From the sequence record ON528746: 64,000 nt of DNA; one strand, given 5' to 3'. A program made the translations under genes and the position numbers. The notes under the pieces are model-generated. The model made no database searches. It saw only the letters and a list, made by a program, of their open reading frames with translations, and was not told where the DNA came from. Source of the stretch: Shigella phage ESh36. Below are positions 3,596-55,072 of this stretch, one piece after another (within the stretch, counting starts at the first letter, position 1; each line of letters opens with the position of its first letter).

Positions 3596-4098
3596 TGCAT
3601 TCCAATCACAAAAAATTGAGGACGAGTAATACCGCCAATGCAGCATTTACTATTGCAGCAGTGTTGCACAGTTTCAATATGAATATCATAAATTTTATCC
3701 ATATCAGGAGATTTAACAGGCTCATCGATTATATACAAAATCCGCGAAAGCGATAAACCTCTGAACTTGCTACCTCTATTACCAACAAAACTACGGATAG
3801 AATCGGTAAATAAGCGGAATCGAATATCATCGCTAGAATAACGAGAAAATTCTTTTTTAATGTGGCCCGCAGAAATTTTAGCGTAAGCTGAAGTATTAGA
3901 AAGAACAATAACTGTTCCACCATTATACAGCCAATTAGCAGCAAAGTTAGTCACAGCAGTTGATTTACCTGATTGACGTCCACCATCTAAACGAAGTGTA
4001 CAATATTCTTTAAATAAATGTGACGAATAAGGTACATAAAATCCACTATTACAAATTTCTTCTACTCTAGCATCAGAATGGTGTGTAAAAGCATTCAT
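3592..4098 (-). CDS. small P-loop NTPase with C-terminal Cys cluster
   Basis: 168 aa; Walker A GGRQSGKST, Walker B-like ILYIIDEP, C-terminal HCCNSKCC. Confidence 0.55.
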   Translation of the reverse strand: MNAFTHHSDARVEEICNSGFYVPYSSHLFKEYCTLRLDGGRQSGKSTAVTNFAANWLYNGGTVIVLSNTSAYAKISAGHIKKEFSRYSSDDIRFRLFTDSIRSFVGNRGSKFRGLSLSRILYIIDEPVKSPDMDKIYDIHIETVQHCCNSKCCIGGITRPQFFVIGMQ

Positions 4099-32400: not shown

Positions 32401-34911
<2,511 letters not shown>

Positions 34912-51486: not shown

Positions 51487-51494
51487 TATAAATA
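51487..51494 (+). promoter_or_regulatory. late promoter (TATAAATA) upstream of the segD-like gene
   Basis: Exact TATAAATA 29 nt upstream of the ATG. Confidence 0.45.
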
Positions 51495-51522: not shown

Positions 51523-52140
51523 ATGTACCACTTTGTATATGAAACAACAAATCTAATAAATGGTAAAAAGTATATAGGAAAGCACTCTACTGACGACCTG
51601 AATGATGGCTACCTTGGTTCCGGTAAGGCAATTCAGCAGGCTATAAAGAAATATGGTGAAAACAATTTCTCTAGAAAAATACTAAAAGAGTTTAAAACTT
51701 CCGAAGAAGCGTACATGTATGAAGAAGAAATTATAACTCCTGAACTGATAAAAAGCAAAAATTATTATAATATGAAACCTGGTGGAATTGGTGGAATTGT
51801 TATGACTACAGAGGTTATAGCAAAGATGAAAGAATCTTCCGCTAAGAGATTTGAAAACTCACCGGGCACGGTATTAGGTACAACTTGTTACACTAATGGA
51901 ACTAAAAATATTTTTATTAAGCCTGGAGAACTTGTTCCAGAAGGATTTGTAAAAGGGATGGTTCATCCTAATAGAAAGTCCAGAAAAGGATGTAAAGTCA
52001 AACCGACTACAACAGGAACTTTTTGGGTCAATAATGGCGCAATAAATAAATTAATACAACCAGACGGTATTATTCCCGACGGATTTATTAAAGGTCGTCT
52101 CATGAAAAGAGATTCTAAAGGCAAATTTAGTAAGGCATAA
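51523..52140 (+). CDS. segD: GIY-YIG homing endonuclease (SegD-like)
   Basis: 205 aa; N-terminal GIY-YIG module YHFVYETTNLINGKKYIGKHS; between inh and uvsW as T4 segD is. Confidence 0.75.
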   Translation: MYHFVYETTNLINGKKYIGKHSTDDLNDGYLGSGKAIQQAIKKYGENNFSRKILKEFKTSEEAYMYEEEIITPELIKSKNYYNMKPGGIGGIVMTTEVIAKMKESSAKRFENSPGTVLGTTCYTNGTKNIFIKPGELVPEGFVKGMVHPNRKSRKGCKVKPTTTGTFWVNNGAINKLIQPDGIIPDGFIKGRLMKRDSKGKFSKA

Positions 52141-52142
52141 TT

Positions 52143-53651
52143 ATGGATATTAAAGTACATTTTCACGACTTCAGTCATGTACGCATCGATTGTGAAGAGA
52201 GCACGTTCCACGAATTAAGAGATTTCTTTTCGTTTGAGGCCGATGGATATAGGTTTAATCCTCGCTTCAGATATGGCAACTGGGATGGACGAATCCGTCT
52301 TTTAGATTATAATCGCCTTCTTCCATTCGGCTTAGTTGGGCAAATTAAAAAGTTCTGTAATAACTTTGGCTATAAAGCCTGGATTGACCCGCAAATTAAC
52401 GAAAAAGAAGAATTATCAAGAAAAGATTTTGATGAATGGCTTTCTAAATTAGAAATCTATTCAGGAAATAAAAGAATTGAACCACACTGGTATCAAAAAG
52501 ATGCAGTGTTCGAAGGATTAGTTAATCGTCGTAGAATTCTTAATCTTCCAACATCTGCAGGTAAATCTTTAATTCAAGCTTTGCTTGCTCGATATTATTT
52601 GGAAAATTATGAAGGTAAAATTCTTATCATTGTTCCAACAACTGCTCTGACAACTCAGATGGCTGATGACTTTGTTGACTATCGTTTATTCAGTCATGCA
52701 ATGATAAAGAAAATTGGCGGTGGAGCATCAAAAGATGATAAATATAAAAATGATGCACCAGTCGTTGTTGGTACATGGCAAACTGTAGTAAAACAACCAA
52801 AAGAATGGTTCTCACAGTTTGGAATGATGATGAATGATGAATGCCATCTTGCTACAGGAAAAAGTATTTCATCTATCATATCAGGTTTAAATAACTGCAT
52901 GTTTAAATTTGGTCTATCTGGTTCATTACGTGATGGCAAAGCCAATATCATGCAGTATGTTGGAATGTTTGGTGAAATATTTAAGCCAGTAACGACCTCT
53001 AAATTAATGGAAGATGGACAAGTAACTGAGCTAAAAATTAATAGTATTTTTCTTCGCTATCCCGATGAGTTCACTACTAAATTAAAGGGAAAAACTTACC
53101 AAGAAGAAATAAAAATTATTACTGGGCTCAGTAAAAGAAATAAATGGATCGCTAAATTAGCTATTAAGCTTGCACAAAAAGATGAAAACGCTTTTGTCAT
53201 GTTTAAACATGTGTCACATGGTAAAGCTATTTTCGATTTAATTAAAAATGAATACGATAAAGTTTATTACGTATCAGGGGAAGTTGATACCGAAACCCGC
53301 AATATAATGAAAACCTTAGCTGAAAATGGCAAAGGAATAATTATAGTAGCTAGTTATGGTGTATTTTCTACTGGTATTTCAGTTAAAAATCTGCACCACG
53401 TTGTTTTAGCACACGGTGTTAAATCAAAAATCATTGTATTACAAACAATCGGTCGTGTATTACGTAAGCATGGTTCTAAGACAATCGCAACAGTCTGGGA
53501 CCTCATAGATGACGCGGGCGTAGTTTCTAAATCAAAAACATCTTCTAAAAAATACTCGCATTTAAACTATCTTTTAAAACATGGACTTGATCGTATTCAG
53601 CGTTATGCTGATGAAAAGTTTAATTATGTGATGAAAGAGGTTAAACTTTGA
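52143..53651 (+). CDS. uvsW: UvsW RNA-DNA and DNA-DNA helicase
   Basis: 502 aa MDIKVHFHDFSHVRIDCEESTFHELRDFFSFEADGYRF; SF2 helicase motifs (PTSAGKS, DECH). Confidence 0.95.
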   Translation: MDIKVHFHDFSHVRIDCEESTFHELRDFFSFEADGYRFNPRFRYGNWDGRIRLLDYNRLLPFGLVGQIKKFCNNFGYKAWIDPQINEKEELSRKDFDEWLSKLEIYSGNKRIEPHWYQKDAVFEGLVNRRRILNLPTSAGKSLIQALLARYYLENYEGKILIIVPTTALTTQMADDFVDYRLFSHAMIKKIGGGASKDDKYKNDAPVVVGTWQTVVKQPKEWFSQFGMMMNDECHLATGKSISSIISGLNNCMFKFGLSGSLRDGKANIMQYVGMFGEIFKPVTTSKLMEDGQVTELKINSIFLRYPDEFTTKLKGKTYQEEIKIITGLSKRNKWIAKLAIKLAQKDENAFVMFKHVSHGKAIFDLIKNEYDKVYYVSGEVDTETRNIMKTLAENGKGIIIVASYGVFSTGISVKNLHHVVLAHGVKSKIIVLQTIGRVLRKHGSKTIATVWDLIDDAGVVSKSKTSSKKYSHLNYLLKHGLDRIQRYADEKFNYVMKEVKL

Positions 53652-54340
53652 ATTATAAATTAATATATGATAATTTAATTAATAGAGCCCAGAATCGGGC
53701 TCGCCTTAATGGATACACTGAAACGCATCATATAATTCCTAGATGTATGGGTGGTACAAATGATAAGTGTAATTTAGTAGAACTAACGGCTGAAGAACAT
53801 TTTATAGCCCATAAACTTTTAGCTAAAATTCATCCAAACCATTACGGTATAATTAAAGCCGTTATATGTATGGGAATGAACTCAAAGACTCATGAAAGAC
53901 ACGTTAATAAATCTTACGCATGGGAACGTCGTAAAATGGCAGAACTTCAATCCGGTGAAGGTAATCCATTTTACGGAAAACACCATACGGAAGAACATAA
54001 ACAATATATGTCAAAACTCATGAAAAGTCGTCCAATTACATGGGGAAATAAAATTAGTAAAACTAAAAGAATGAACCCAACGAAATGGACCGAAGAAGCT
54101 AAAAGATTACATTCAATCAATCAATCGGGTAAAAATAACGGCATGTATGGAAGGAAACATTCCGCTAAATCTATTCAGAAAATTAAAGATAACATGCCAG
54201 ATAATTCAGGAGCTAATAACCCAGCTGCTAAACCTATAGAAGTAAATGGTGTTAAGTATAAATGTATGAAAGACGCTTCTAAAGCTACTGGATTATCAAT
54301 GTACAAACTAAGAATACTTAGAAAAACAGTTAATTTATAA
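53648..54340 (+). CDS. free-standing HNH homing endonuclease with NUMOD3-like repeats (TTG start)
   Basis: 230 aa; HNH core YTETHHIIPRCMGGTNDKCNLVELTAEEHFIAHKLL paralogous to the 33327 HNH; C-terminal NPFYGKHHTEEHK and NNGMYGRKHSAKSIQK repeats. No in-frame ATG near the N-terminus; TTG overlaps the uvsW stop 7 nt after AAAGAGG. Confidence 0.7.
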   Translation: MNYKLIYDNLINRAQNRARLNGYTETHHIIPRCMGGTNDKCNLVELTAEEHFIAHKLLAKIHPNHYGIIKAVICMGMNSKTHERHVNKSYAWERRKMAELQSGEGNPFYGKHHTEEHKQYMSKLMKSRPITWGNKISKTKRMNPTKWTEEAKRLHSINQSGKNNGMYGRKHSAKSIQKIKDNMPDNSGANNPAAKPIEVNGVKYKCMKDASKATGLSMYKLRILRKTVNL

Positions 54341-54356
54341 GGGCTTCGGCCCTTTG
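54341..54356 (+). terminator. UUCG-tetraloop hairpin after the HNH gene
   Basis: GGGC-TTCG-GCCC followed by TTT, immediately before uvsW.1. Confidence 0.4.
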
Positions 54357-54365
54357 GAGAAAAAG

Positions 54366-54596
54366 ATGTTACTAGGATTTAAACAATTTCTTTATGAAGC
54401 TTCTATTGATGAATTTATGGGTAAAATTGCCTCTTGTCAAACATTAGAAGGTTTAGAAGAACTTGAAGCTTATTATAAGAAAAGAGTTAAAGAAACTGAA
54501 TTAAAAGATACTGATGACATCTCTGTGAGAGATGCTTTGGCAGGAAAAAGAGCTGAATTAGAAGATTCAGACGATGAAGTAGAAGAAAGTTTTTAA
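54366..54596 (+). CDS. uvsW.1: UvsW.1
   Basis: Track start is TTG; ATG at 54366 gives 76 aa MLLGFKQFLYEASIDEFMGKIASCQTLEGLEELEAYYKK, matching T4 UvsW.1. Confidence 0.8.
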   Translation: MLLGFKQFLYEASIDEFMGKIASCQTLEGLEELEAYYKKRVKETELKDTDDISVRDALAGKRAELEDSDDEVEESF

Positions 54597-54628
54597 ATTA
54601 AAAAAGGCCCAACCAAAAAGGAAGGGCC
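54597..54628 (-). terminator. rho-independent terminator closing the minus-strand uvsY operon
   Basis: Minus-strand hairpin GGCCC-TTCCTTTTTGGTT-GGGCC followed by TTTTTTAA. Confidence 0.5.
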
Positions 54629-54651
54629 AAAACTATAGACTAAAGGTCACA

Positions 54652-54819
54652 CTATAGCAAAAGTTGTGTTTCATTTAATTGTTCTTCCGAACTTTCTGAA
54701 ACTGGTAGTTCTTTAATGTAATTATAACAAGGCCCAGGATGTACAGGACCTTTGTCTGTTTCAACAACCAATGCAGAATCGATTGGAGTTTTACAGACAA
54801 CGCAAATCTTATCTGACAT
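54652..54819 (-). CDS. small Cys-containing protein (about 55 aa; T4 uvsY.-2 position)
   Basis: Hand-translated ORF below the track's 60-aa cutoff: MSDKICVVCKTPIDSALVVETDKGPVHPGPCYNY...; CxxC...C pattern. Confidence 0.4.
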   Translation of the reverse strand: MSDKICVVCKTPIDSALVVETDKGPVHPGPCYNYIKELPVSESSEEQLNETQLLL

Positions 54820-54847
54820 GATTGTCTCCTCTAAATTATATATCTAT

Positions 54848-55072
54848 TTATATAACTCTCATATGCATATCAATGCCCATATCTTTGGAATAAAAATATT
54901 CATCAAGATATCCGGCAAATTTTCCTTTAATATAAAGTACATCTTCACCGCATGGGTGGTCGGCCAGGATACGAATATCCTGACGCTTGAGATTATACTT
55001 TTTCATTAAGAATTGAATTTCCGTTTCAAATTCTTCTTCATAATTAAAAGCATCATCAATGCTATATCTCAT
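54848..55072 (-). CDS. hypothetical protein (T4 uvsY.-1 position)
   Basis: 74 aa ORF whose start overlaps the uvsY stop. Confidence 0.6.
   Translation of the reverse strand: MRYSIDDAFNYEEEFETEIQFLMKKYNLKRQDIRILADHPCGEDVLYIKGKFAGYLDEYFYSKDMGIDMHMRVI

Follow-up and report, generated by a model that had tools for sequence, protein, structure and literature searches.

The one Mob endonuclease with in vivo evidence of both nicking and homing is MobE of phage T4 (PMC2790892). Its gene is promoterless, overlaps the stop codon of nrdA and carries a mapped intrinsic terminator 27 nucleotides (nt) after its AUG (PMC2790892) that ends ~30% of transcripts (PMC2988022), and the enzyme nicks nrdB of T2 at a site where the phages that carry mobE are polymorphic (PMC2790892, PMC2988022). 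Overlap with an upstream stop codon has been read in the T4 endonuclease genes as a coupling that limits expression, and the free-standing ones all start with AUG, except for mobA, which starts with GUG (PMC2988022). SegE, a T4 endonuclease of the GIY-YIG family encoded between inh and uvsW, targets uvsW (PMC2988022). Here we consider a gene at the other end of uvsW, between uvsW and uvsW.1, in a stretch of 64,000 nt from Shigella phage ESh36 (sequence record ON528746), the whole of which we call the window. We find that the open reading frame (ORF) at this site, of 230 amino acids (aa), is a real gene, that its product is a MobE-like HNH homing endonuclease, so far an uncharacterised member of a well-known family, and that the gene is probably a free-standing promoterless element, co-transcribed with uvsW, translated by coupled initiation at a TTG codon and homing into the uvsW 3' end.

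The comparison with T4 MobE holds in several respects and fails in others. Like mobE, the gene is a free-standing and probably promoterless cassette with a start codon that overlaps the upstream stop and a stable hairpin ~30 nt into the ORF, and like mobE it combines a sporadic distribution with polymorphisms in the neighbouring, presumptive target gene (PMC2790892). In contrast to mobE, which lies between nrdA and nrdB and begins with ATG, it lies between uvsW and uvsW.1 and begins with TTG; its hairpin is followed by no U-tract, and its polymorphic block lies upstream of the insertion where that of MobE lies downstream. The C-termini also differ, that of MobE being a CPHCG zinc finger and that of the present protein an I-TevI-type combination of NUMOD3 and helix-turn-helix.

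Membership in the family is supported by PHROG 655, 'homing endonuclease', which matches the 230-aa protein at 3e-60 and includes T4 MobE as well, and by 41% identity to MobE over 181 aa (E 2e-33). H28, N42, H51 and H55 are invariant in an alignment of 60 homologous sequences, and the AF2 model built on that alignment (mean pLDDT 90.9) folds strands 25-28 and 43-46 and helix 48-61, at pLDDT ~96, into a beta-beta-alpha core within residues 25-61, followed by a series of short helices and then by a C-terminal beta-hairpin and helix-turn-helix. Two stretches of the protein match NUMOD3 (PF07460; E 7e-14, 51.8 bits against a cut-off of 20.4). Residues 157-216 resemble the DNA-binding domain of I-TevI (PDB 1i3j), in which a NUMOD3 helix is likewise followed by a helix-turn-helix, with a phmmer E of 0.006, and the best Foldseek match of the model is 1i3j_A (probability 1.0, target-normalised TM-score (TMt) 0.54); the Pfam family I-TevI_DNA-bd (PF20987), taken alone, gives a weak match below its cut-off. 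Alignment and model together indicate an N-terminal HNH nuclease joined to an I-TevI-type DNA-binding tail of NUMOD3 helices and helix-turn-helix. The first-pass annotation, made from the letters of the window, had described an HNH core with NUMOD3 repeats, a description borne out by the invariant catalytic residues, the AF2 fold and a PF07460 score above its cut-off. The resemblance to I-TevI, an intron-encoded GIY-YIG enzyme, extends to the DNA-binding module alone, and I-HmuI of Bacillus phage SPO1 (PDB 1u3e), an HNH nicking homing endonuclease that is intron-encoded, shows 18% identity, below usual significance. Some public records label the gene a 'group I intron endonuclease', which is wrong, since it lies between two separate ORFs with no intron; an Rfam scan of 53000-55000 found no group I intron, and the protein scores 29.7 bits with TIGR01453, short of the 56.05 cut-off.

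The start codon proposed in the first pass, a TTG overlapping the uvsW stop with a Shine-Dalgarno (SD) sequence 7 nt upstream and no in-frame ATG near the N-terminus, agrees with what we find (Table 1). The sequence AAAGAGG (GAGG) ends 7 nt upstream of the TTG, an in-frame TAA stands at 53642, two codons before it, and the next in-frame ATG, at 53747, corresponds to residue 34, past the catalytic His-His pair. Orthologues occupy the same slot in 11 lineages, and in all of them the start codon overlaps the uvsW stop (TTG in five, GTG in one, ATG in five), in the form NTGA or, once, the TAATGA arrangement of mobE, with an N-terminus M-N/K-Y whichever start codon is used. Because 11 lineages begin at the same overlapped position with a like N-terminus, the comparative support for initiation at 53648 is strong. 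For the counts that follow, a carrier is a record with the gene at 95% protein identity or more, and the base set is the phage records that match the 2-kb region. The 65-nt junction is 100% identical in 37 of the 48 endonuclease-positive records and has one mismatch in each of the other 11; in ZN18, the sole record read of those 11, the change is synonymous and falls in codon 7.

Two other routes of translation can be imagined, since TTG is a weak initiator and the uvsW and endonuclease ORFs overlap in different frames: initiation at a downstream ATG, the competing case that the first-pass annotation had itself raised and for which 53747 is the candidate, or fusion to UvsW by frameshifting. 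We regard this pair as most improbable. Initiation at 53747 would lose H27 and H28 together with the conserved MNY...LI helix, the orthologues retain the overlapped start, and those of the ATG type give the same N-terminus from it. The frameshift fusion was rejected on the in-frame TAA at 53642, which leaves two codons for the shift, without a slippery heptamer. Returning to the TTG start, its first base is also the third base of the last uvsW codon; with an A there (CTA or ATA) the UvsW residue would stay the same and the start would become ATG, so that a non-ATG start is not forced by the uvsW coding sequence. The UUG fits the expression-limiting theme of the T4 endonuclease genes, and low, coupled expression may reasonably be expected from the likeness to T4 mobE.

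The hairpin in the 5' coding region would be a further element of this kind. It occurs at +31 to +37 in 11 orthologues, as well as in T4 mobE and in a paralogue between genes 13 and 14 of the window (at ~33362-33383). It was examined by per-sequence hairpin finding, a synonymous-codon shuffle and a hand-registered count of pairs. The hairpin is kept in position but not in sequence, the 13 genes having 10 different stems between them, with canonical pairing in 78 of 78 stem cells and loops that are often GAAA or GTAAA; the observed stability was reached in only 0-10 of 500 synonymous-codon shuffles. RNAalifold run on a MAFFT alignment of the region returned no structure, the differing loop lengths putting the arms out of register. 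By its place in the gene, the hairpin corresponds to the mobE internal terminator.

As for transcription, the closest exact late-promoter consensus on the + strand is at 51487, upstream of segE; from there to the gene the + strand holds no exact TATAAATA, and sigma-70-like sites are no more frequent than chance. Variants of the late-promoter core that differ at one position occur inside the ORF, TATAAATT at 53654-53661 directly past the TTG and TATAAATG at 54257-54264, ~100 nt before uvsW.1. A promoter specific to the endonuclease was considered and rejected, the exact late consensus being absent and only the one-off variants TATAAATT and TATAAATG present. The TATAAATG variant could in principle restore transcription of uvsW.1 if the internal hairpin terminates.

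The gene is held by 48 of the 762 records in the base set (~6%), T6, PST and PYPS2T among them. In T4, T2, PD112 and OES_C-3 uvsW runs straight into uvsW.1, with no endonuclease gene between, which bears out the earlier view of the HNH ORF as an insertion between these two genes. Orthologues were gathered by protein search and contig look-ups, and a scan of IMG/VR gave two close orthologues and otherwise distant members of the family. Those in the same slot, at 54-70% identity, come from Dhakavirus ESCO10, Gaprivervirus TH40, Jiaodavirus Roth77, Morganella phage Rgz1 and six metagenome contigs; only 13 of the Jiaodavirus-type records carry the gene. The uvsW/uvsW.1 slot is thus common to at least five genera and at least 11 lineages, and so patchy a distribution is what a mobile, selfish element would show.

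Among Tequatrovirus alleles the ratio of nonsynonymous to synonymous polymorphism (pN/pS) is 0.03-0.06 and none has an internal stop. The protein is under strong purifying selection and, because of this ratio, is not a decaying remnant. The contrary view, of a defunct or decaying endonuclease in which the TTG arose from an ATG by mutation and deletion has merely not yet removed the ORF, draws on the ATG found at the same position in five orthologous lineages, which is possibly ancestral, and on the frequency of such decay in homing endonucleases after fixation, I-TevIII of T4 being defunct (PMC2790892). We consider it very unlikely, for besides the low pN/pS and the absence of internal stops the catalytic residues are invariant, the strong GAGG at its ideal spacing is kept in all 48 records, TTG or GTG is found in six separate lineages, and the gene is far from fixation in the matching records. 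Strong purifying selection and the retention of the slot in at least five genera would also suit an active nuclease that serves mainly for something other than its own homing, be it the exclusion of competitors (marker exclusion of uvsW alleles) or some function between host and phage, with mobility as a by-product. This too we think unlikely, if less so than decay: sporadic presence is the pattern of a selfish element rather than of a beneficial gene, and no feature of the sequence separates such a role from homing.

If the gene homes, its target should be visible as a difference between carriers and non-carriers. Over the last ~150 nt of uvsW, Tequatroviruses with the gene and those without it show 14-17 mismatches per 50 nt, as against 0-4 per 50 nt in most of the remaining gene (the segE-linked 5' end excepted), and of the changes in the final 90 nt nine are silent. 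On the downstream side of the insert the two groups are separated by no comparable block of substitutions. When the 96 nt of 53505-53600 were used as a query, their endonuclease-type form was found in 49 records, compared with 48 carriers. Upstream clustering is present in three of the four genus pairs, those of Tequatrovirus, Dhakavirus and Jiaodavirus. In three carrier genera the Val codon GTA that lies 16-18 nt ahead of the uvsW stop is replaced by GTG, GTC or GTT; the adjoining TAC is changed to TAT. Since SegE targets uvsW and is accompanied by a similar block, and since carriers of mobE are polymorphic at the nick site of MobE, we infer a target in the uvsW tail, either at the insertion point or a short way upstream of it.

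The clustered uvsW substitutions between carriers and non-carriers are in themselves a likeness to T4 SegE, from which the present enzyme differs in its nuclease family and in acting, as we suppose, on the other end of uvsW. At the 5' end (52143-52290) 11-15 substitutions per 50 nt separate the segE carriers (this window, T6, PST and T4) from the non-carriers (T2, OES_C-3 and PD112). Two endonuclease genes of different families bracket uvsW.

The ends of the cassette suggest how it is fitted between its neighbours. In this window uvsW terminates in GAG GTT AAA CTT TGA (EVKL*), and it is the terminal codons of the endonuclease gene, AAA ACA GTT AAT TTA TAA (KTVNL*), with everything downstream of them, that equal the uvsW 3' end of endonuclease-less Tequatroviruses. 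This right-hand copy matches the T2 uvsW tail exactly from 19 nt before the stop onward, and the uvsW.1 junction, with its CUUCGG hairpin and GGAG, is identical to that of the endonuclease-less phages. The left-hand copy is 86% identical to the left copy of ESCO10, as compared with 67% to the native Tequatrovirus tail. Other genera have corresponding ends: 22 nt at the end of the ESCO10 gene are identical to the uvsW tail of JS10, 22 nt at that of TH40 to the tail of VR7, the TH40 insert being bounded by a 17-nt perfect direct repeat, ATTAAACAGGTGGAAAT, and the Roth77 gene end shares 6 nt with the native tail. The element is thus flanked by two copies of the uvsW tail, of which the right is native and supplies the element's own stop codon, and the left travels with the element. 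Through the substitute left tail and the in-frame read-through of the native one, uvsW keeps a near-normal C-terminus and uvsW.1 its original upstream context. Such an in-frame read-out through a duplicated host-gene tail shows how a cassette can insert without harm to either neighbour.

Taken together, the preferred reading runs as follows. The endonuclease gene is most likely co-transcribed with uvsW, and ribosomes that end at the uvsW TGA most likely re-initiate at the overlapping TTG, aided by the GAGG 7 nt upstream. A weak start codon, combined with such coupling and with the conserved hairpin ~35 nt into the ORF, would limit the amount of protein made. When a carrier and an endonuclease-less relative infect the same cell, the enzyme would nick or cut the relative's DNA close to the 3' end of uvsW; the prediction is of a nick in one particular strand near TACGTA^ATGAAAAC, some 15-20 nt ahead of the uvsW stop, and of none in the recoded allele. 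Repair off the carrier genome would copy in the gene and ~150 nt of flanking uvsW, and the cassette would bring a substitute uvsW tail, containing SD, start codon and uvsW stop, and then read in frame through the native tail. The nuclease activity, target site, homing, expression level and hairpin role that this scheme supposes are drawn by analogy.

Several findings weigh against the scheme or parts of it. The Pfam HNH family (PF01844) matches the protein weakly, at 16.3 bits, below its gathering threshold of 21.4; the Mob subgroup is divergent, and the gene 13/14 paralogue scores above the HNH_4 threshold. The lack of a U-tract after the hairpin stem makes a terminator role like that in mobE uncertain; the hairpin may serve for attenuation, form an RNA end or be a site of processing. 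ATG serves as the start in about half of the lineages, and selection specifically for TTG is not demonstrated. In Gaprivervirus the uvsW alleles of carrier and non-carrier are nearly identical, and flanking substitutions are therefore not always needed for immunity. Finally, OES_C-3, with neither the endonuclease gene nor segE, has (at 1480-1600 of its sequence) the endonuclease-type form of 53493-53592, and the last 60 nt of its uvsW are of the endonuclease-less type; the shared stretch may simply be a natural allele, or else co-conversion in the past may have left it behind, and the phage itself may be a recombinant or have lost the gene in the past.

The paralogue at the gene 13/14 site (33327-34139) bears on how the element reached the genome. 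The first-pass annotation had reported paralogy of the two N-termini, and the alignment agrees, with 39% identity over 114 N-terminal residues (E 1e-22) and none beyond. The further proposal, of spread within the genome as the source of the pair, is not supported in the form given: the two proteins are as distant mutually as each is from T4 MobE and their DNA-binding modules are unrelated; the gene 13/14 protein is 33% identical to MobE over its full length, C-terminal CPHCG zinc finger included. The two endonucleases are instead long-standing members of a single family, with shuffled modules and separate sites. Nuclease-domain identity of only ~39%, unrelated DNA-binding modules and orthologues of the uvsW-site gene at its own site in other phages point to independent arrival by homing from other phages and to no recent intragenomic copy. 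In the YUEEL01 record a homologue is annotated beside a neck-protein gene, possibly at the gene 13/14 site. One stretch of the uvsW-site protein has a different affinity, its first ~55 residues (RAQ.R, PRCMGG..DK.NLVELTA; compared over 53648-53800) seeming closer to T4 MobE than to the same-site orthologues of other genera, which hints at a past exchange between Mob paralogues within Tequatroviruses.

The element lies exactly at the point across which uvsW and uvsW.1 used to be taken for a single gene, and we therefore also looked for a fused form. The insertion of mobE that splits nrdA in Aeh1 (Friedrich et al. 2007, as cited in PMC2988022) offers a parallel, in that a Mob-type gene stands at the boundary of ORFs once read as one; the uvsW/uvsW.1 boundary would on such a view be an ancient endonuclease landing site, where a Mob-type insertion split an ancestral helicase gene and was later mostly lost, the present cassette being the surviving form, in the manner of Aeh1 nrdA and of the 'genes in pieces' of T4 gene 39/60. 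We find no support for this idea and judge it improbable. Unlike the Aeh1 case, uvsW and uvsW.1 are two genes in each of the endonuclease-less phages examined, and the search for a fusion gave none: all 75 UvsW.1 clusters found are of 52-96 aa, with no helicase domain and none fused to UvsW. The five T4-like genomes examined by Nolan et al. 2006 all have two ORFs, uvsW and uvsW.1, and T4 resequencing gave two ORFs according to the same authors (PMC1524935). In the T4 reference NC_000866.4 (~3680-3700 of the extract) uvsW is still a single ORF of 587 aa, because its junction reads TTAATAAGCTTCGG where T2 and others have TTATAAGGGCTTCGG.

The findings on the uvsW-site gene alter nothing in the current understanding of homing endonucleases. 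They add one more MobE-like endonuclease, as yet uncharacterised, whose candidate target region at the uvsW 3' end is clear and can be tested; the classic T-even cross systems are directly usable, the gene being present in T6 and absent from T2 and T4. A slot shared by at least five genera, the alternation of ATG, GTG and TTG and the covarying hairpin make a natural comparative series on how phages limit endonuclease expression.

Table 1. Coordinates in the window of the endonuclease gene, its predicted parts and the adjoining features.
Feature	Position	Strand	Basis
Free-standing MobE-like HNH homing-endonuclease gene, 230 aa, TTG start	53648..54340	+	ORF, PHROG 655, MobE identity
Translation-initiation module: AAAGAGG 53634-40, TTG 53648-50 overlapping uvsW TGA 53649-51	53634..53651	+	read from sequence
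Hairpin GAGCCC-agaatc-GGGCTC in 5' coding region, 37 nt past start	53685..53702	+	per-sequence finding, shuffles, covariation
Predicted HNH (beta-beta-alpha metal) nuclease core, residues ~23-55: H27, H28, N42, H51, H55	53714..53812	+	alignment, AF2 model
First NUMOD3 motif, residues 94-122 (second ~155-185)	53927..54013	+	Pfam PF07460
Predicted I-TevI-like DNA-binding region (NUMOD3 helix and helix-turn-helix), residues 157-216	54116..54295	+	phmmer, Foldseek
Clustered-substitution block at uvsW 3' end; candidate target/immunity region	53505..53647	+	comparison with endonuclease-less phages
Left uvsW-tail copy, MKEVKL*, recoded relative to native MKTVNL*; forms SD and TTG	53631..53651	+	alignments
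Right uvsW-tail copy, equal to native uvsW 3' end; last endonuclease codons KTVNL*	54320..54340	+	identity to T2 tail
uvsW repair-helicase gene; presumed upstream partner in translational coupling and probable target gene	52143..53651	+	Pfam UvsW_N, ResIII, Helicase_C
CUUCGG hairpin 54341-52, GGAG SD 54356-59, uvsW.1 ATG 54366 to 54596	54341..54596	+	Pfam UvsW-1 1.7e-30
segE, flanking the other end of uvsW	51523-52140		

The ORF is intact, being the first start-to-stop ORF of its own frame, and the window is a segment of a Tequatrovirus (T4-like, T6-like) genome. The closest matches over 2 kb are the PYPS2T group of Yersinia phages and Shigella phage ESh30 (98.8%), with T6 at 98.3% identity. 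The gene order is inh on the - strand, then segE, uvsW, the endonuclease ORF and uvsW.1 on the + strand, followed by uvsY.-2, uvsY.-1, uvsY and gene 25 on the - strand. For uvsW.1 the mechanical ORF list gives a TTG start at 54354, whereas the homologous, SD-preceded start is the ATG at 54366; this ATG is annotated in PYPS2T and PST, and the T6 record AP018814 has a longer form.

Literature searches found no paper that describes an endonuclease gene at the uvsW/uvsW.1 site. The gene is already present in public annotation, and T6, PST and PYPS2T carry it with the identical TTG start, under the name 'homing endonuclease' in T6 and PYPS2T and mobD/MobE in PST. Elsewhere in the T6 record AP018814 product names are wrong by transfer: segE is given as 'tail tape measure protein', uvsY as 'ribonucleotide reductase large subunit' and uvsY.-2 as 'endonuclease'.

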